From an uncultured Candidatus Saccharibacteria bacterium (GTDB lineage Bacteria > Patescibacteriota > Saccharimonadia > CAILAD01 > BJGX01): a DNA stretch of 43,472 nt. The stretch spans positions 1 to 43,472 of the forward strand of contig CAYNHH010000001.1 in assembly GCA_964397085.1 (NCBI GenBank), in the 5' to 3' direction. Below, in pieces: positions 451 to 17,516 of the stretch; positions within the stretch are counted from its first letter, which is position 1; each line of letters starts with the position of its first letter. The notes under the pieces are model-generated. The model had not been told where the DNA came from. It searched no databases and was given only the letters and a program-made list of their open reading frames with translations. The position numbers and the translations under genes are program-made.

Positions 451-2646
451 CTAGACTTCTATTACTACAGGCAACACAATTGGACTACGCTTTGTCACCT
501 TGTAGAGCAAGTTACTGAGCTCATCACGCATACGTGCTTTTACTATCGGTGAGTTGGGTGGAGTCTTAGGGTTGCGGTTAGCAAAGATATTTTTGACAAT
601 GGTACGTGAGCTGTTCAGTAACTCTTCATTGTCTTTCACATAGATAAACCCACGGCTAATAATATCTGGACTAGTCACAAGCTTACCAGTCTTACGATTG
701 ACAGTAGCAATTACCGTAAAGATGCCATCACTAGCCATGGCTAGTCGGTCTTTAAGTACTATGTCTTGCACATCACCAATACCACTACCGTCAATCAATA
801 CTGAGCCAGACTGTACGATTGGACCAAGCTTCACTGCTCCATCCATGGCCTCAAGTGTTTGACCATTCTCTATCACAAAGACATTTTCTGGTTTCACTAC
901 CCCACCACGCTTGGCAATCTCGGCATTGTGTACCATATGATGCACTTCACCGTGAATTGGTAAGTAATACTTTGGTCGTACCAAAGAAATCATCTCCTTC
1001 ACTTCTTCATAGTATGCATGACCAGATGTGTGCATAATTCCTAGATCATCAAAAGTTCTAGTAGCCTGTTGATACACGTAAGGTCCCCATCGAAATAGGT
1101 CATCTACCATACCCCATACTGACTTTTCGTTACCAGGAATAATCGAGCTTGAAAGTACCACTACATCTGAGGCCTTGAGCTTGATGTCTTTGTGCTCACC
1201 CTTGCCCATACGTACTAGGCCAGAGTTTTCTTCACCTTGGTGACCCGTGGTAAGTACTGCTACTTCACCATCCTGATATTTGCTGACATCAGCAGCCTTA
1301 ATAAGTAGACCCGGTGGTACTTTGACATACCCAAGCTTCACTGCTATTTCCATGTTACTCAGCAAACTTCGTCCAGCCAGTGCAAGCTTACGCTTAGCCT
1401 TGTGCGCAGCATCTACAAACACCTGAATACGATCTACTTGTGAAGCAAATGAGCTAATAATCACCCGCTTGTTGTAGTTACGAATAAATATCTCATCGAG
1501 AGTCTCAATAATCTCTTGTTCCGTTGGGCTCGTGCCCATGTTTTCACAGCTCGTACTATCACACATAAGCATAAGCACGCCTTCGTCACCAAGCTCTTTT
1601 AAGCGAGCCTTGTTGCTAGGCTTACCGCTCAGTGGATCGTCATCAAAACGCCAATCCCCAGTATTAATAAGTGTTCCCACTGGTGTATGAATAGCAATCG
1701 AGCAAGCGTCTGGGATAGAGTGCGTGATACGGATAAACTCAATACTAAATGCACCAAGCTGTATCTTTTCACCACTATCTTGGTCAACAGTGCGGATCTC
1801 TGGCTTGAAAGGCAACTTGTATTCTTCTAGTTGTCTTTCAATAAACTTGGCCGTAAAATTAGCTGCATATATTGGAGCTGGTAGCTTTGGCAAGATAAAT
1901 GGTATACCACCAACATGATCCATGTGAGCATGAGTAATCAAGTGAGCACGGATTTTGTGCTTTCGTTCTTCAAGATAAGTAGTATCAGGAATAATGTAAT
2001 CAATACCCGGTGTTTCTGGCCCAGGAAACATAAAGCCAATATCCATCACAATAATGTCGTTTTCGTACTCAAGCGCCATCATGTTCTTACCGATCTTATC
2101 TAGTCCACCAAGAGGAATAATCTTGAGCTTACCGGCATCTGTCTTGCTCATAGACACAGGCTTAGCTGTAGCCTTTACTTCTGTAGCACCTGGCTTACCA
2201 TTGGCATTAAAGCTACCTTCAGAAAATACTGCTGGGCCTCTATCGTATTTACGACGCTGAGCAAAGTTGTCACCGCCCCTACCTACACCGCGTGGGCCGC
2301 TTCCGCCGCCTTGTCGATTTTTGTTGTTGTTTCGAGAACGGTTTTGATTATTGCCATTGTGACTAGGCTTTTGCGTACCATTAGCTGCGGCAGCTTTGGC
2401 AGCAGTACCTGCTGGCATCAATTTTGGCGTAGGTGCTTTTGCGGTAGCTTTGGCAGCTGTGCCCGCTGGCATTAGCTTGGGAGTAGGTGCTTTTGCTACA
2501 GGAGCAGTCTCTTGTTTGGGCGCAGGCTTTTTAGCTGACATACCCAAATCTTGAGCAGTCAGTGGTCGGCTATTAAATTGTTTTTTATTGTTTGAATCCA
2601 TTAGTTTGTAATGATTTCTCCTTTGTTTTGTATCGAGTGGATACAA
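451..2646 (-). CDS. rnj: Ribonuclease J (metallo-beta-lactamase/beta-CASP) with a low-complexity N-terminal extension; start codon uncertain (ATG at 2601 is an alternative)
   Basis: 731-aa ORF with the HAHMDHVGG metal-binding motif and the beta-CASP architecture and length typical of RNase J. The first ~170 aa are K/A/P/G/N-rich. Confidence 0.9.
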   Translation of the reverse strand: MYPLDTKQRRNHYKLMDSNNKKQFNSRPLTAQDLGMSAKKPAPKQETAPVAKAPTPKLMPAGTAAKATAKAPTPKLMPAGTAAKAAAANGTQKPSHNGNNQNRSRNNNKNRQGGGSGPRGVGRGGDNFAQRRKYDRGPAVFSEGSFNANGKPGATEVKATAKPVSMSKTDAGKLKIIPLGGLDKIGKNMMALEYENDIIVMDIGFMFPGPETPGIDYIIPDTTYLEERKHKIRAHLITHAHMDHVGGIPFILPKLPAPIYAANFTAKFIERQLEEYKLPFKPEIRTVDQDSGEKIQLGAFSIEFIRITHSIPDACSIAIHTPVGTLINTGDWRFDDDPLSGKPSNKARLKELGDEGVLMLMCDSTSCENMGTSPTEQEIIETLDEIFIRNYNKRVIISSFASQVDRIQVFVDAAHKAKRKLALAGRSLLSNMEIAVKLGYVKVPPGLLIKAADVSKYQDGEVAVLTTGHQGEENSGLVRMGKGEHKDIKLKASDVVVLSSSIIPGNEKSVWGMVDDLFRWGPYVYQQATRTFDDLGIMHTSGHAYYEEVKEMISLVRPKYYLPIHGEVHHMVHNAEIAKRGGVVKPENVFVIENGQTLEAMDGAVKLGPIVQSGSVLIDGSGIGDVQDIVLKDRLAMASDGIFTVIATVNRKTGKLVTSPDIISRGFIYVKDNEELLNSSRTIVKNIFANRNPKTPPNSPIVKARMRDELSNLLYKVTKRSPIVLPVVIEV
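2386..2493 (-). repeat. In-frame 54-nt tandem duplication in the rnj N-terminal extension
   Basis: KAPTPKLMPAGTAAKATA followed directly by KAPTPKLMPAGTAAKAAA (residues 52-87). Confidence 0.85.
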
Positions 2647-9085: not shown

Positions 9086-9134
9086 ATGGATTTGGATGGT
9101 CTCCTGTCTACCCTCTCGAGTAGAAAGGAAAAAA

Positions 9135-9480
9135 GTGGAGCTGGAGGGAATCGAACCCTCGTCCAGTGCATCGTCACAATACTCGCTACAACCATTCCCA
9201 AATTTCGGCTTTATGGCCACCTTGGAGTTGGGTCTCCGCACCATCTAGTCTTTGCTAGAAGTCAGGCTGTCTTTGCAGCTCGTCATTAGTCTTTCCTAAA
9301 GTCAGTCTCTGCTCCTGTTGCCGAGCTGCAGAGTCGAGGCTCCGAATCTGGATAAATCCTTTTCAAACCGTTGTCTTTTCAGGCGGCGGTTTAGGTAATG
9401 GCCCTGTTTAACGTGTCTGAGCCATCAATACACGGGTTGCAAATACTGCTTTGGGAACACTGTCGAAACCGATCAGCCCC
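9135..9480 (-). ncRNA. ssrA: tmRNA (transfer-messenger RNA)
   Basis: The minus strand starts GGGGCUGAUCGGUUUCGAC and ends GGACGAGGGUUCGAUUCCCUCCAGCUCCAC. The 7-bp acceptor stem has the G3:U alanine identity pair. T-arm GAGGG-UUCGAUU-CCCUC; CCA is not fully encoded. The tag reading frame was not confidently assigned. Confidence 0.9.
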
Positions 9481-9487
9481 TGCTTAG

Positions 9488-9518
9488 ATTCTAGAGTCTA
9501 GATGTTAGACGCTAGCAA
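9488..9518 (-). promoter_or_regulatory. Candidate ssrA promoter
   Basis: -10 TAGAAT (attcta 9488-9493) sits 7 nt before G1 of the tmRNA. Weak -35 TTGCTA with a 19-nt spacer. Confidence 0.4.
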
Positions 9519-9548
9519 AATCCAAAAAGGGACCAACCAAGTTCCTAC

Positions 9549-9573
9549 AAAAAAATCCAAATTTATATTTGGA
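9549..9573 (-). terminator. Canonical rho-independent terminator on the minus strand, just upstream of the ssrA promoter
   Basis: Stem TCCAAAT(9556-9562)/ATTTGGA(9567-9573) with a 4-nt loop, followed on the minus strand by U7 (A-run 9549-9555). Confidence 0.7.
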
Positions 9574-10039
9574 TACATACACTGTTTAAAGTACTCTGAG
9601 CTTTTTTAGAAGATTTTTGATTTAGTCTCAGCATGAATTCTCAATAAAATTAAGAACTCGTGTTGAGACCCTCCGAGACCCCAACGAATTGGTGCCTCGA
9701 AAGGCAATGAGTGTTTGCTTGATGGTTTACTGGCTTACGCCACCAAGCCTTGTTTTAGTTGTAAGCAAGGTACAGGAGTACTCCACTCCAAAACTCTCGG
9801 ACGACACATACACGCTGTTCACACATCCTAAGATGTGGCCAGGCCGCCACTATTTGCAATCACACCAAGCGGCGCTCTATCTTGACCTTACTCAAGAGAG
9901 CGGCCAGCAAGGTGTGATTGTCGAGCTTAGTGATCCCATTGTAGGAAGCTTGGCGTTTCACGGCCGAGCTCACAGGGGAAGGTATCACTTATTTCACCGC
10001 TAGGGTCCCCCAATGCGCATTGTATACTCACCCTCTCGG

Positions 10040-10078
10040 GTCACCTGTTGATGTCACCTTGTGGTGTCACCCCGTTCG
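10040..10078. repeat. Three tandem 13-nt units each starting GTCACC
   Basis: GTCACCTGTTGAT / GTCACCTTGTGGT / GTCACCCCGTTCGAT, with starts at 10040, 10053 and 10066. Confidence 0.75.
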
Positions 10079-10625
10079 ATGTATGGGTTTGTACTCCCAT
10101 CAAGCGCGCTACTCTGATTTCTCCCTACCCCCGCACCAGCATTATTAGGTGCAGCACTTATTTCGCCCGACCTAAGCCGTTTCCATAAGTGTCTGGTGTG
10201 CTCACCAGAAGGTCTTTCGCGGTTGCGATTTCGTTACAGTATGCCTGCGTGCATCGGCCCGAGCGTATCGGGTAGCGCGTACGGCTTACAGTCCCCCTGT
10301 AACAAGGTTCCTCGTTTCGGTCGTGCCTACTCCTGAAGAAACCTTTCTAACTTGTCTGAAAGCCGTAGCTTTCGAATAAAAACCAGAGATAATATCGACT
10401 TTAAGAAATGAAGAGATTGTATAAAATATGTGTACTCTATTATTTCAAAGGAAAATGTCTAGTCTTTATTCGAAAGCCAAAGGCTTTATATATAAGGTTC
10501 AAATGATGTGCCTGTGCACAACTGCCCGCCCACATGTATAGCTATTCACCAATCTGCCCAAAAATATTTAAATATGTGGCACTGGTAATTTGCTAGTTGC
10601 GAGCAAGGCAACTGTGTACAGATTT

Positions 10626-10677
10626 CAAGTTTCGCTCTTTCAGAGCTCATCAGTACTGGTAGTAACCAGTAGACTTG
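10626..10677 (-). ncRNA. Hammerhead self-cleaving ribozyme, type III topology
   Basis: Minus strand reads 5'-CAAGUC^UACUGGU-UACU-ACCAGUA-CUGAUGA-GCUC-UGAAA-GAGC-GAAA-CUUG-3'. All invariant core nucleotides are present. Stem I is 7 bp, stem II 4 bp (G10.1:C11.1) and stem III 5 bp, with a GUC cleavage triplet (cut after C10672). Confidence 0.85.
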
Positions 10678-10927
10678 CACCCCGGGATTACTCCCAGGGC
10701 TTACTAACTTCCTCGCAATGAGGCACAACACCAAGTTAGTCGGTGTGCTCTATTTGGTAATCGCCGAGCTGGCGGGTGGCGGTATTGTCACGACTCCTAG
10801 AAGCCGGCTAATTTACGTCTTGGTGCTAGACGTCAGAATTCTGTTGCTAGGCTCTGATAGGCTTTTGAAAGCCTGCCCCTGTATTGATGCAGCGCGGGCT
10901 ACTAACGGGCCAATACACCCGGAATTT

Positions 10928-11161
10928 TTACCTGTTCACCAGGGCCATCTCGCGGAAGATCCGCTGGTTGGCTTCTGCGAGCCTTTCACTCGCCTCAGAC
11001 TCCCTTTGCTCGAGCGACTTGAACGGGTCGATCCCGTTCTCCACGCACCAGCAGAAGTCCTCGTAGTCCATCTCTTCGACGGGCACAAGAGCGGACATGA
11101 CATGGGGCATTTCATTGGTGATCATACCAAACATACTTAATACACTCAGTAAGACCACCAA
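10928..11161 (-). CDS. Hypothetical small acidic protein (start uncertain; several in-frame ATGs)
   Basis: 77-aa GC-rich ORF directly downstream of promoter 11226-11254. The opposite-strand 140-aa ORF is R/L/P/H-rich and looks like a shadow. Confidence 0.45.
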   Translation of the reverse strand: MVVLLSVLSMFGMITNEMPHVMSALVPVEEMDYEDFCWCVENGIDPFKSLEQRESEASERLAEANQRIFREMALVNR

Positions 11162-11225
11162 ATATGCCCTGCTCTTTTATAACGTACAAATGCTCTTTGT
11201 TAGAACAACTCAAGCATCGAAAAGT

Positions 11226-11254
11226 AGTATAGCAAACTTTAAATAAAATGTCAA
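11226..11254 (-). promoter_or_regulatory. Consensus sigma70 promoter with extended -10
   Basis: Minus strand reads TTGACA-ttttatttaaagtttgc-TATACT (17-nt spacer, TGc extended -10). Confidence 0.6.
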
Positions 11255-11363
11255 TACTTTTATACACTTTATTTACAATTATGTACACTAACAGATATAA
11301 AATAGGAATATTTTATGTCATACTTTATAAATATATCGAGATAATACAGCAATGTATAAAAAT

Positions 11364-11387
11364 ACCCCCTTCATGACAAAAGGGGGT
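11364..11387 (-). terminator. Rho-independent terminator overlapping the stop codon of 11371..11709
   Basis: ACCCCCTT/AAGGGGGT 8-bp stem, followed on the minus strand by AUUUUUAU. Confidence 0.7.
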
Positions 11388-11709
11388 TGAAATACTTAGC
11401 AAACAATTCTTGAGGCAAGTACTGCTCAATGCAAAGCATGCAGGTGAACAGATCTTGAATCGAATCCTTGTAGTACTGCTTGGTACGTACATTTTCTTGC
11501 CATAGCTGTCTTGCTATACGAACATGCTCAACGAGTCCACTCATAAATGCAAAGACAACATCTTCATTTGATAGGTCGAGATTAAGACGATCTATCTCAT
11601 CCTTCACAGGCTTACGGTAGCGATCTACCATATGCAATGGATTTGCGATAAGACCATCTCGTCTGGTTTGCTCAAGAAAATCAGTGATCATGCACCATTG
11701 TGGCTCCAT
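11371..11709 (-). CDS. Hypothetical protein (112 aa from ATG 11709)
   Basis: The track ORF extends to 11847, but its N-terminal part covers the terminator hairpin 11805-11836. The internal Met (MEPQW...) was therefore taken as the start. Confidence 0.5.
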   Translation of the reverse strand: MEPQWCMITDFLEQTRRDGLIANPLHMVDRYRKPVKDEIDRLNLDLSNEDVVFAFMSGLVEHVRIARQLWQENVRTKQYYKDSIQDLFTCMLCIEQYLPQELFAKYFNPLLS

Positions 11710-15033: not shown

Positions 15034-15957
15034 TTATAACAGGCTCAATTGGTAAATGAGCATTTCCATAGCCACTCCAGATTCTAGCCTGCCCGTCTTC
15101 ACCTCAAAGTCTGTATCAACTATTAACTGATAAGCCTCCGCTAGCTGGCTCATATCTCTATTGCGCACCAAGTTTTGGGCCTTTGTAGCTGCATACGGGC
15201 TAATAGAGAGTTCTTTTTGCCACTCATTGCCTTGAGTTTCATTATCTTTGGCAAGCACCATTGTGCGGTACTGATACGTAATAGCACCTAGTATCATCTG
15301 ATCGGCCTCACCGGCAACTCTCAGATTCTTGTACAGTTGAGTGGCTTTTGCCACGTCTCCTCGAGTAATTGAGTCTATCATCATAAAAGCAGTCTGATGC
15401 AAATTGGGTACCACCAGCTCATCAATAGATGCAACGGTAATTTCTTGCGAGTAATTACACAGCTTGGCTATTTCTTGCTCTAATTGCCATTGATCGTTCC
15501 CTACTCTTTCTATGAGTACATTTATAGTACGGTTATCTATGCTGCCACTGTATTCTTGTACCAGCTTCTTGACCCAATTCACTAGGTCATGAGGGCTCAA
15601 CAGGTTAAAATTCTTGGCATTCTTGAGCTTTGAGAGAGTCTTAAAGTACACACTACGCTTGTCTACTTGAGTATCTATTATCACTAAATTGGTAGAGTCA
15701 GCACTGCTAGAAATGAGCTCATCGAGCTTGTCTTTTTGAAGCTTGTGCCCAGCAAGATCTTTGACTATCAGCAAACGGCTACTTACAAACATAGGTACCA
15801 CAGCCAAGGCATTGAGTAGATCGCTAAGGGTACGCTCACTCATCTCAAAGACATCCATATCTGCATCACTACCCGTCTTGCCAATATAACTCTGTTTGAT
15901 TTTGGCCACTTGTTTGGCTATTGCATAGCTATTATCACCATAGAAGTAAAATATCAT
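15034..15957 (-). CDS. holA: DNA polymerase III subunit delta
   Basis: ~307 aa from ATG 15957 (MIFYFYGDNSY...), with the length and N-terminal pattern of HolA. ATGA overlap with the mutM stop. Confidence 0.7.
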   Translation of the reverse strand: MIFYFYGDNSYAIAKQVAKIKQSYIGKTGSDADMDVFEMSERTLSDLLNALAVVPMFVSSRLLIVKDLAGHKLQKDKLDELISSSADSTNLVIIDTQVDKRSVYFKTLSKLKNAKNFNLLSPHDLVNWVKKLVQEYSGSIDNRTINVLIERVGNDQWQLEQEIAKLCNYSQEITVASIDELVVPNLHQTAFMMIDSITRGDVAKATQLYKNLRVAGEADQMILGAITYQYRTMVLAKDNETQGNEWQKELSISPYAATKAQNLVRNRDMSQLAEAYQLIVDTDFEVKTGRLESGVAMEMLIYQLSLL

Positions 15958-16841
15958 GGCTTTGCCTTCACTATCTTCTGACACTTTGGGCAAACGTGCG
16001 TGCCACGCCCGGCAACTCGTATTTTTTTGATCTCACTACCACACACCGGGCAAGTCTGTCCTTCTCGTCTAAAAACCTTGGCAAAAGTAAGATAACTGCC
16101 CTTTTTGCCCTCAGCATCTACATAATTTCTATCTGAAGAGCCACCTAGCTCTATACTCAGACTCATCACCTCACGTAGTGCCGTGTAAAGCCGCTTGAGC
16201 TTCACTATACTCACATCTTGGACTTTTGTGGCAGGGTGAATTCTAGCCGCATATAACCCTTCATCTGCGTAAATATTACCTACTCCTGCCACCACTGTCT
16301 GGTCAAGAATTGCGGCTTTGATGCTGGTTTTACTCCGTCGCTTCACTGCATCACGAAATTGTTCAAAAGTGTACGCATCACTCAGTGGTTCTGGACCCAA
16401 CTTACTCAAGAACAGATTGGAAGTATAGAGGTCTTGAGATTTTTCTAGCTTTACCCAGCCAAACTTTCGTTGGTCGTTAAAGTACAGTTTGGCGCCATTA
16501 GCAAAAGTAAGCGTAACGCGCGTAGATCGATCTGGTAGCTTACTTATAAGGCTATCGTTGGGGTGGCCTGCACCAAAATGTTGCGTGCCATTATCAAACA
16601 CTAGTTGGCCGGTCATTTTGAGATGTATAAGTAGGCTGTAGCCAGATGATAAAGGGATAATTATCACTTTACCCCGACGATTTACTGCCTCTACTTTTGC
16701 ACCAATCAACGTTGTATTGACCAGTTCTTGGCTGTTAGGAAAGCCCTTTGGCCAATCAAAAACCACGCTTTTTACTTGTAGGCCCGGTAAAAAGCGTTGC
16801 AATCCAAGTCTAACTGTCTCTACCTCTGGCAACTCTGGCAT
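15954..16841 (-). CDS. mutM: Formamidopyrimidine-DNA glycosylase
   Basis: MPELPEVETV N-terminus and a C-terminal zinc finger CPVCGSEI...CPKCQ; 295 aa. Confidence 0.9.
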   Translation of the reverse strand: MPELPEVETVRLGLQRFLPGLQVKSVVFDWPKGFPNSQELVNTTLIGAKVEAVNRRGKVIIIPLSSGYSLLIHLKMTGQLVFDNGTQHFGAGHPNDSLISKLPDRSTRVTLTFANGAKLYFNDQRKFGWVKLEKSQDLYTSNLFLSKLGPEPLSDAYTFEQFRDAVKRRSKTSIKAAILDQTVVAGVGNIYADEGLYAARIHPATKVQDVSIVKLKRLYTALREVMSLSIELGGSSDRNYVDAEGKKGSYLTFAKVFRREGQTCPVCGSEIKKIRVAGRGTHVCPKCQKIVKAKP

Positions 16842-16956: not shown

Positions 16957-17169
16957 ATGCTTTCTCTGCTCATCATCTTGATGTTGTTGCTAGTGGCATT
17001 TGCTTTCTACTTCGGATGTCACGTTGGCAGTATGTACTTGCTCTCATTATTGTTTTTTCCAGAATGGGAAAAGAAAGAGCGCCTGCAAAATTCAGTTTTC
17101 ATAGCCATAGGGGTTATAATCGGTTCAATCGTTGGGCCGACAATCATCAGAGTAATCACGGGAGGATGA
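16957..17169 (+). CDS. Small membrane protein (2 predicted TM)
   Basis: 70 aa and hydrophobic. First gene after promoter cassette 1. Confidence 0.5.
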   Translation: MLSLLIILMLLLVAFAFYFGCHVGSMYLLSLLFFPEWEKKERLQNSVFIAIGVIIGSIVGPTIIRVITGG

Positions 17170-17171
17170 GA

Positions 17172-17516
17172 ATGACCATCTTGGTCGTAGACGATGAACG
17201 CACGCTCAATCTCAAAGATGCGTGGCACGTACAGACATGCAGTGAAGCAATATATTACCTCAAAGACCACCCTACCGTGCGCGAGCTGTGGCTTGATCAC
17301 GACCTAGGACCAGACGAAGACATCATGCGTCTGGTTGATTGGCTTCAAGAAGAAGCCTTCTTTGAGCGTGGATGTGAGTTTGACCGTATTGTGGTGCACT
17401 CTATGAACCCGGTTGCTTTCGACAAGATCAACCGTGCCTTGAGTCGCTACTACCCGGTGCATCGCGTCAATGTGACACCGTTTATCGAAACCGTAGAATC
17501 TACCCAAGGGAGATAA
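17172..17516 (+). CDS. Stand-alone receiver-like domain resembling the cyclic-phosphate processing receiver (cREC) family
   Basis: ILVVDDERTL...AWHV.T..EAI.YL......ELWLDHDLG...I..LV.WL....VHSMNPVA follows the DDER/LDHDLG/HS.NP pattern recalled for that family. SD GGAGGA lies upstream. Confidence 0.6.
   Translation: MTILVVDDERTLNLKDAWHVQTCSEAIYYLKDHPTVRELWLDHDLGPDEDIMRLVDWLQEEAFFERGCEFDRIVVHSMNPVAFDKINRALSRYYPVHRVNVTPFIETVESTQGR

Follow-up and report, generated by a model that had tools for sequence, protein, structure and literature searches.

What does a complete self-cleaving ribozyme motif do beside the transfer-messenger RNA (tmRNA) gene of an uncultivated Saccharibacteria bacterium, and which RNAs would it separate? 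This question is raised by a DNA stretch of 43,472 nucleotides (contig CAYNHH010000001.1 of assembly GCA_964397085.1, referred to at its whole length as the window), on whose minus strand an earlier reading of the letters alone, here called the original prediction, had placed a type III hammerhead ribozyme next to the tmRNA gene ssrA. As set out below, there is very likely a genuine type III hammerhead here, which evolution has conserved and which resides in the chromosome of this bacterium. Comparison with related loci furthermore makes it probable that the ribozyme is functional and cleaves in cis, that it was vertically inherited within a Saccharibacteria clade, and that it holds a fixed chromosomal position in a strongly promoted unit upstream of ssrA. 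Its most likely role, as read from the arrangement of the locus, would be to cut the mRNA of a small protein from a structured RNA of ~1.1 kb located just upstream of the tmRNA gene.

The motif comprises 52 nt and consists, in 5' to 3' direction, of CAAGUC, the hairpin UACUGGU-UACU-ACCAGUA (stem I), CUGAUGA, the hairpin GCUC-UGAAA-GAGC (stem II), GAAA, and CUUG. Its core is complete (C3 U4 G5 A6 U7 G8 A9, G12 A13 A14, the A15.1:U16.1 and G10.1:C11.1 pairs, and a GUC triplet). C17 corresponds to window position 10672, which places the predicted scissile bond between 10672 and 10671. Stems I and II are capped by loops and the 5' and 3' ends exit via the open stem III, i. e. the topology is of type III. 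The minus-strand sequence, core positions, and GUC triplet given by the original prediction proved to be exactly as written, and its 7-bp stem I, 5-bp stem III, and scissile position after C10672 were likewise confirmed from the sequence, as was the topology, which recurs in all relatives. Its stem II of 4 bp with a UGAAA loop can be read in the letters, but ViennaRNA extends it by one pair, to 5 bp capped by a GAA triloop. For a 66-nt excerpt, ViennaRNA returned the hammerhead fold as both the minimum-energy and the centroid structure. The folding energy corresponds to z = -2.1 versus shuffles, and thermodynamic support by itself is thus modest. A relaxed type III descriptor (core, stem I of at least 5 bp, stem II of 4 bp with the G:C pair, stem III of at least 4 bp with the A:U pair, and H17) gave one match in the window, at the reported site, and none in 300 dinucleotide-preserving shuffles, which argues that the motif is no chance match. 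A covariance model built from the orthologues likewise found a single copy in the window. A second ribozyme, with which a circular or unit-length RNA could be produced, was sought in the window and not found.

When compared with Rfam, the motif aligns to all positions (1-54/54) of the Hammerhead_3 model (RF00008) with 40.3 bits (E = 2.3e-7 when 501 nt were searched, and 9.5e-7 for 2.1 kb), and the corresponding hammerhead of a relative (L014) scores 33.5 bits (E = 5.2e-5). The original prediction had expected a score above the gathering threshold, which did not hold, as the gathering score of this family is 48.5 bits. Hence, a gathering-threshold scan of the whole window and seven relatives listed only tmRNA and tRNAs, the hammerhead emerging in permissive searches alone, which would also explain the missing annotation. 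The Rfam gathering threshold misses this hammerhead family, with both tested members (window and L014) below the cut-off; it is an annotation cut-off and no biochemical criterion.

Relatives provide comparative evidence on the ribozyme. Exact-protein look-ups yielded only short metagenome contigs, of which L001, L002, and L004 have 99-100% identity around the motif. When the neighbouring DHH (NrnA-like) protein was used to scan the representative genomes of GTDB, 11 loci emerged, all from Candidatus Saccharibacteria or Patescibacteria metagenome-assembled genomes, whose DHH protein is 68-84% identical to that of the window. According to blastn, several of these relatives syntenically retain the regions of the promoter and the hammerhead as well as the tmRNA gene and portions of the non-coding DNA downstream of the hammerhead, and a regular expression, followed later by a covariance model, located the hammerhead at the syntenic position in seven of them (L007, L008, L009, L010, L011, L013, and L014). 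A metagenome scan with a pattern composed of the hammerhead and a downstream motif returned 43 loci and added the true homologues L039, L043, and L056; the remaining 40 loci were rejected as chance matches, among them a gut-metagenome sequence present on 14 contigs. Altogether, the syntenic hammerhead was recovered from 11 further sequences, namely ten divergent relatives and one 99%-identical strain.

In the resulting alignment of 12 sequences (A4, including the window), in which 16 stem pairs were counted, CUGAUGA, GAAA, U16.1:A15.1, G10.1:C11.1, and C17 show no variation in any of the 12 sequences, while 95.8% of the cells hold standard pairs and compensatory double changes occur at 12 of the 16 pairs. 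This is the opposite of a core that drifts without covariation in the stems, an outcome that the original prediction had named as speaking against a ribozyme. When the 3' partners were slid by 1 to 3 columns as a control, only 26-47% remained paired, and none of 500 shuffles attained the observed pairing or covariation score. Stem I is paired throughout (100%), with compensatory changes at six of seven pairs and variants as different as UACUGGU/ACCAGUA, GGUAAGU/ACUUACC, UGCUGGU/GCCAGCA, UCCUG/CAGGA, and CUCCAAU/GUUGGAG. Stem II is paired to 97.9% (three of four pairs compensatory) and stem III to 88.3% (three of five), the latter value being lowered in part because L011 is shifted in the alignment and because L008 and L010 probably have a bulged nucleotide. 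In L011, the cleavage triplet is UUC with a compensating A15.2. Six further hammerheads from the same loci enlarge the set to 18 distinct sequences, for which the paired cells amount to 97.5% and the compensatory pairs to 13 of 16, in an alignment that was fitted to a covariance model (R1) and is therefore biased towards the structure; U16.1:A15.1 and G10.1:C11.1 are present in all 18.

The original prediction had described the surroundings of the motif as an unexplained stretch poor in open reading frames (ORFs) next to ssrA. While the stretch does adjoin ssrA, it is better viewed as a conserved putative transcription unit, in which a promoter, a small ORF, the hammerhead, and the ~1.1-kb RNA would follow one another on a single transcript (Table 1). 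The preceding gene has its own terminator (11387-11364 (-)). A single conserved promoter lies upstream of the hammerhead, and no U-tract terminator was found between the two. This promoter and its A/T tract are nearly identical in the seven syntenic relatives named above as well as in L039 and L043, and constitute the most conserved DNA of the region.

The small ORF stands in contrast to this constancy. At least four unrelated protein families occupy its position across the relatives, including a basic MSK..RRKL family (L007, L013, L014, and L043), a family characterized by WAVVVECGNGEVHYFERSACHPD (L008 and L009), and a zinc-ribbon-like family (L010 and L011), so that the arrangement looks like cassette replacement within a conserved chassis. 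None of the relatives' small ORFs gave significant Pfam or PHROG matches. The small ORF of the window, for which an alternative in-frame ATG exists at 11125 and gene callers used a 76-aa version from 11158, has a homologue in L039 (57.7% amino acid identity, E = 2e-10) that beats the antisense frame and is preceded by a good Shine-Dalgarno sequence. It gave no significant Pfam, PHROG, or NCBIfam match, and a search of 5.8 billion proteins recovered only the query itself. The small ORFs of the window and L010 share a similar leader and first codons (M-I/T-T-N), the proteins being otherwise different. Furthermore, the window and L001 differ by 25 mismatches in 3.4 kb, ~18 of which cluster in ~170 nt (10960-10790) at the transition from the small ORF to its 3' untranslated region (3'UTR); the three changes within the ORF are all non-synonymous. 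This cluster represents either a local hypervariable patch or an assembly artefact.

Between the small ORF and the cut, the 3'UTR holds two hairpins. The first presents the loop motif GCCUAGCAACAGAA, corresponding to YYWGGCAACAGAA as the family consensus and to GGGAACAGAA in L039, and is found in all relatives on a closing stem that varies in sequence (UCAGA/UCUGA in the window, CGAGAAA/UUUCUCG in L007, CAAGAA/UUCUUG in L014, and GGCUU/AAGCC in L008). The consensus loop is partly complementary to UCUGU...GUUGCC (~10616-10601) just 3' of the hammerhead. The second hairpin is GC-rich and stands directly before stem III. As it is not followed by a U-tract, it is no intrinsic terminator. A strong, covarying pre-cut hairpin of ~7-11 bp, each time different in sequence, occurs in all 11 syntenic sequences, in which the 63 nt upstream of the hammerhead fold with z = -3.5 to -5.5. 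The predicted 5' cleavage product would accordingly end with this hairpin and the 8-nt tail UGCAAGUC, which would carry a 2',3'-cyclic phosphate.

On the other side of the predicted cut lies an ORF-free, relatively GC-rich RNA that may be a new large non-coding RNA. Blocks of it are conserved in the seven syntenic relatives, L043, and L056, and comparison of the relatives revealed no conserved ORF, while its middle varies in length and accommodates small ORFs in L010 and L056. The first conserved hairpin, with an internal loop and the invariant AU-rich loop AUAUUUAAA, is paired to 95.5% in an alignment of 11 sequences (A6) with five of ten pairs compensatory (slid controls 28-46%). Further conserved blocks include UGCGCG..CCGAUACGCUCGG..CGAUGCA. 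Towards the 3' end, a module made up of a long UUCG-capped hairpin and a helix enclosing a small AU-rich hairpin is supported by RNAalifold with 31 predicted pairs, 18 of them compensatory. The subsequent terminator-like hairpin (AUCCAAAU-AUAA-AUUUGGAU) was missed by a terminator scanner because it has too few G-C pairs; its counterpart in L007, L013, and L014 reads UCCAAAC...GUUUGGA with a U-run and shows one compensatory change.

Apart from Hammerhead_3 and tmRNA, no credible Rfam 15 match was obtained for window positions 9400-11500 or for L014 5950-7330 (E <= 5 to 10), nor did blastn against a phage database match the downstream RNA. RNase P RNA, which was considered on account of ACAGAA and CCGGCUU-like strings, was rejected as no model matched, and the same holds for GOLLD, ROOL, OLE, HEARO, and group I or II introns. 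In L008 and L009, a GAU.GAGCGC.GC block occurs twice (core+738 and +1302, and core+743 and +973, respectively, as offsets from the CUGAUGA core of the hammerhead), which suggests internal duplication of one RNA module.

The tmRNA gene follows the unit in L007, L010, L011, L013, and L014 and, as judged by sequence motif, in L043. It was not found downstream of the unit in L008 and L009, where a conserved 65-aa ORF, also present in L011, takes its place. ARAGORN detected neither tmRNA nor tRNA in the window, despite the full-length Rfam match to tmRNA. Moreover, window positions 9857-9084 and L002 1984-2763 represent 0.77-kb alleles of ~70% identity between flanks of 97.7-99.3%; the replaced tract, in which the complete tmRNA gene and the 3' portion of the large RNA are contained, probably stems from homologous recombination with a more distant relative.

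The 3' module of the downstream RNA is not confined to this position. A covariance model built from it (R2) also finds it at these loci directly behind genes for tmRNA, tRNA, and small ORFs. Eight copies, found in the window and seven relatives, have a core consensus in common, in which a variable GC hairpin is followed by CCCGACCAGAG, a small AU-rich hairpin, UCUGGUCGGG, and finally AAAGUCCCG, with CCCGACCAGAG...UCUGGUCGGG forming a conserved helix around the AU-rich hairpin. No Rfam family matched this module, which could, judging from its placement, be a lineage-specific gene-end, processing, or recombination element.

Table 1. Location of the hammerhead, of the other parts of the putative transcription unit, and of related elements in the window and in relatives (L numbers).
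Feature	Location	Strand	Basis or remark
Sigma-70-type promoter, TTGACA-17 nt-TG-extended TATACT, with A/T-rich upstream tract	11226..11254	(-)	11/12 consensus positions
Small ORF, 68 aa, ATG at 11134	10928..11134	(-)	gene-caller predictions on Logan contigs; L039 homologue
Hairpin in small-ORF 3'UTR with conserved loop motif	10833..10857	(-)	motif in all relatives
GC-rich hairpin, 8 bp, GUAA loop	10680..10699	(-)	ends 2 nt before stem III
Type III hammerhead ribozyme	10626..10677	(-)	sequence, fold, Rfam match, chance control, covariation
Hammerhead stem III, 5 bp	10677-10673 with 10630-10626	(-)	
Hammerhead stem I, 7 bp	10671-10665 with 10660-10654; loop I UACU 10664-10661	(-)	
Hammerhead core CUGAUGA	10653-10647	(-)	
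Hammerhead stem II, 4 bp	10646-10643 with 10637-10634; loop II UGAAA 10642-10638	(-)	
Hammerhead GAAA	10633-10630	(-)	
Predicted 3' cleavage product, ORF-free, relatively GC-rich, ~1.1 kb	9549..10671	(-)	conserved blocks, covarying end helices
First conserved hairpin of downstream RNA	10546..10588	(-)	alignment A6
3' module of downstream RNA	9619..9714	(-)	RNAalifold; model R2, 74 bits
Weak AT-rich terminator-like hairpin followed by 6 U	9549..9574	(-)	sequence reading
tmRNA gene (ssrA), downstream neighbour	9133..9480	(-)	Rfam RF00023, 90.3 bits
Gene-end module, second copy in the window, between tmRNA and kinase gene	8932-8846	(-)	model R2
Gene-end module, relatives	L007 7600-7678; L011 8647-8749, 8180-8222; L014 7860-7932		model R2
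Gene-end module, relatives	L015 625-715, 1886-1963; L009 6269-6343; L010 7393-7476		model R2
Extra hammerhead between small membrane-protein ORF and holA	L007 332-387; L013 1573-1628; L014 1016-1071		
Related hammerhead after homologous small ORF, before a gene other than holA	L008 1995-1918; L009 326-249	(-)	
Hammerhead of a third kind, in a 3'UTR just before a terminator	L008 5229-5288		

How may these parts act together? Transcription would begin at the TTGACA-17-TGnTATACT promoter, with a predicted start near 11219 (-), and give a transcript that bears the small-protein ORF followed by a structured 3'UTR. After synthesis of stems I and II and of the two strands of stem III, the hammerhead may fold and cleave after C10672 by internal transesterification, as suggested by the complete core together with the covariation. 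Since stem III is 5 bp long and A-U-rich, it should melt and the products should separate. The 5' product would then be the small-ORF mRNA, terminating in the GC hairpin and the tail with its 2',3'-cyclic phosphate, while the 3' product would be the ~1.1-kb structured RNA, whose 5'-OH would be buried in the compact hammerhead fold and which would extend to the weak terminator at ~9550. In this way, the ribozyme could serve as a built-in insulator and end-maker that uncouples an interchangeable small-ORF cassette from a conserved non-coding RNA, although both would be expressed from the same promoter. RNA decay of the RNase J/E type prefers 5'-monophosphate ends and enzymes of the PNPase type prefer 3'-OH ends. 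In light of these general preferences, the ends of both products would be expected to be poor substrates for 5'-phosphate-dependent and 3'-OH-dependent decay.

Several points weigh against this interpretation. The Rfam scores of both the window and the L014 hammerhead are below the gathering score, and the whole unit is missing at this locus from L006 and L012, which implies that not all Saccharibacteria depend on it. For cleavage to be fast at physiological Mg2+, a tertiary contact between loops I and II is required. Inspection of the 12-sequence alignment revealed no Watson-Crick covariation between these loops; loop II mostly terminates in an A-run and a U is supplied by loop I or its closing U-G pair in every sequence, which is compatible with the known U-A loop-loop contact. 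In addition, the co-transcription of ORF, hammerhead, and downstream RNA is deduced from sequence, efficient cleavage in vivo is presumed, an internal promoter within the unit is possible, and the stabilizing effect of the cleavage-made ends is what we infer from general knowledge of RNA decay.

The same features can be accommodated by other explanations. Conceivably, the locus is a stable-RNA operon, in which the promoter at 11254-11226 also drives the tmRNA (and tRNAs in relatives), and in which the hammerhead, RNase P, and the gene-end module cut a common precursor into mRNA, 1.1-kb RNA, tmRNA, and tRNAs. The distal promoter hardly varies and looks like one for stable RNA, no conserved promoter was found directly upstream of tmRNA in the relatives, and most of them have co-oriented tmRNA and tRNA genes downstream; the terminator before the tmRNA is weak and AT-rich, and the same structured module stands after the 1.1-kb RNA, small ORFs, tmRNA, and tRNAs. 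On the other hand, a hairpin with a U-run is conserved between the downstream RNA and tmRNA, a TAGAAT hexamer in the window ends 7 nt before the mature tmRNA 5' end, and L008 and L009 possess the hammerhead unit with no tmRNA downstream, so that an operon of this kind appears rather unlikely. A different emphasis would make the upstream mRNA the target of the ribozyme, which would chiefly regulate expression of the small protein, e. g. by setting the half-life of this message or by being switched on or off through alternative pairing, leaving the downstream RNA as a by-product or regulatory platform. The other hammerheads of the relatives are indeed also placed in 3'UTRs of ORFs, typically small ones, and the conserved 3'UTR loop motif GGCAACAGAA is partly complementary to the sequence just after the hammerhead, which makes an alternative structure possible. 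Yet no convincing covarying alternative pairing was found, and it is the promoter, hammerhead, and downstream RNA that are conserved, whereas the small ORFs fall into at least four unrelated families. Control of the small protein as the main purpose is hence distinctly unlikely.

More remote from the preferred reading is the notion that a prophage or another mobile element inserted next to ssrA and brought the hammerhead along. tmRNA genes are common integration sites, the usual point of insertion for integrative elements being the 3' end. The stretch is GC-richer than its neighbours, the small ORFs have been swapped between lineages, and many bacterial hammerheads are found near prophage integrases (PMC3088659). 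The unit, however, is located 5' of ssrA, and its position is shared syntenically by relatives with DHH proteins that diverge as described above. No integrase or phage gene was present in the window stretches examined, the unit had no match among INPHARED phages or in IMG/VR, two viral-contig scans produced no matches in one case and 14 matches, all by chance, in the other, and no convincing direct repeats or att sites flank the unit. A mobile origin is thus very improbable. As for a chance motif, an inactive relic, or a genuine protein-coding feature in the form of the 62-aa ORF (10546-10734(-)) that spans the hammerhead, these options could appeal to the sub-threshold Rfam score and to the ORF itself, but they are contradicted by the comparative data and hardly credible. 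Besides the empty shuffles and the invariant core with covarying stems in 12 to 18 sequences, hammerhead loop lengths differ by non-multiples of three across the relatives. In the 99% identical strain L001, the hammerhead changes only in loop II, from UGAAA to UUGUAA, and this 1-nt insertion frameshifts the ORF. Given that the ORF furthermore has no Pfam family match and no protein-level conservation in relatives, it is judged to be spurious, as the original prediction had suspected.

How does the insulating hammerhead that we favour compare with known systems? The Rfam Hammerhead_3 family (clan CL00010) is dominated by viroid, satellite, and eukaryotic sequences. The window hammerhead shares with it the three-way junction, all core nucleotides, both closing pairs (G10.1:C11.1 and A15.1:U16.1), and an NUH triplet, which is GUC in the window and UUC in L011, but its stem III has 5 bp instead of the 7 in the model, and it is a single-copy chromosomal element of a bacterium of the Candidate Phyla Radiation (CPR). 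Hammerheads are known in all domains of life, and most bacterial ones reside in prophages.

Bacterial representatives flank variable genes and were proposed to cut long transcripts into gene-length RNAs, mostly in prophages (Perreault et al. 2011, PMC3088659). The element described here resembles them in its location beside short genes of inconstant identity, in the proposed transcript-cutting role, and in the occurrence of several copies per genomic region in relatives. It differs by the lack of a prophage or integrase context, by its syntenic and vertically inherited position, and by a 3' product that would be a long structured non-coding RNA rather than another mRNA.

Synthetic insulators such as RiboJ are engineered from a satellite-RNA hammerhead, which in RiboJ is followed by a hairpin, and remove upstream sequence to leave a defined 5'-OH end. 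In comparison, the window hammerhead would equally be a cis-cleaving, hammerhead-type ribozyme that makes the downstream RNA independent of upstream sequence, with cleavage being predicted here; unlike RiboJ, it is natural, and its conserved, presumably stabilizing hairpin is on the upstream product. The downstream RNA, in turn, is reminiscent of OLE, GOLLD, ROOL, HEARO, and raiA, as it is of kilobase scale, ORF-free, and GC-enriched in an AT-rich genome, with many covarying helices and GNRA/UUCG-type loops. GOLLD and ROOL, moreover, adjoin tRNA-type genes. In contrast to these five classes, the downstream RNA has no Rfam 15 match, and its middle is variable and contains small ORFs in some relatives; we know of no report of OLE, GOLLD, ROOL, HEARO, or raiA beginning with a hammerhead.

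The searchable literature yielded no paper that connects hammerheads with Saccharibacteria, CPR, or Patescibacteria. The hammerhead therefore belongs to a known class, but appears to be unreported for these bacteria in that literature. What may be new is its context, i. e. a hammerhead that would form the 5' end of a large structured RNA without Rfam match, together with the recurring module.

Additional type III hammerheads in the relatives are located just downstream of an ORF, which is typically small. They are of three kinds (Table 1), the first two of which, i. e. those of L007, L013, and L014 and the related copies in L008 (1995-1918) and L009, are preceded by a long CU-rich tract. The window is devoid of these extra copies, and fpg abuts holA at 15954-15993.

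The wider neighbourhood consists of housekeeping genes encoding RNase J, UDG, PNPase, TruB, the NrnA-like DHH phosphoesterase, TrmB regulators, and S20, as well as holA, fpg, CCA/polyA polymerase, and PolA. Gene calls on contig L002, which is nearly identical, additionally gave S15 and a GIY-YIG protein. Genes of RNA-end metabolism are abundant nearby (8801-8271(-), 17016-17516(+), and 451-2646(-)), including those for RNase J, PNPase, the NrnA-like DHH protein, and CCA/polyA polymerase. Among them, the kinase at 8801-8271(-) is closest to the polynucleotide 5'-kinase domain of bacterial Pnkp (PDB 4gp6, TIGR04075), and the ORF at 17016-17516(+), which adjoins a Fic gene, encodes a cyclic-phosphate-processing receiver (cREC) domain. 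These two proteins would suit the 5'-OH and 2',3'-cyclic-phosphate ends of a hammerhead. A functional coupling of the Pnkp-like kinase to the ribozyme was nevertheless rejected, given that the kinase is present in the hammerhead-less L006 and L012 and was not found in the fetched stretches of the hammerhead-bearing L008, L009, and L011. As kinase and hammerhead do not co-occur across the relatives, the link is a lead only.

A broader proposal can be put forward tentatively, and we consider it possible rather than probable. The hammerhead may be the 5'-end-forming device of an undescribed class of ~1.1-kb structured RNAs specific to Saccharibacteria, with a near-invariant strong promoter and interchangeable small-protein cassettes, encoded next to tmRNA and tRNA genes. 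It would then be part of a "punctuation" system of ribozymes and modules that processes composite transcripts of mRNA and stable RNA in reduced genomes.

To our knowledge, the function is unproven for almost every bacterial hammerhead. The present one is chromosomal and was probably passed on vertically within a clade of host-dependent, ultra-small CPR bacteria. With its constant order of strong promoter, exchangeable small ORF, putatively protective hairpin, ribozyme, and 1.1-kb RNA, the locus would provide a concrete case in which a ribozyme insulates transcripts and makes their ends, and it offers two possibly new candidates, namely a large structured RNA and a recurring gene-end module.

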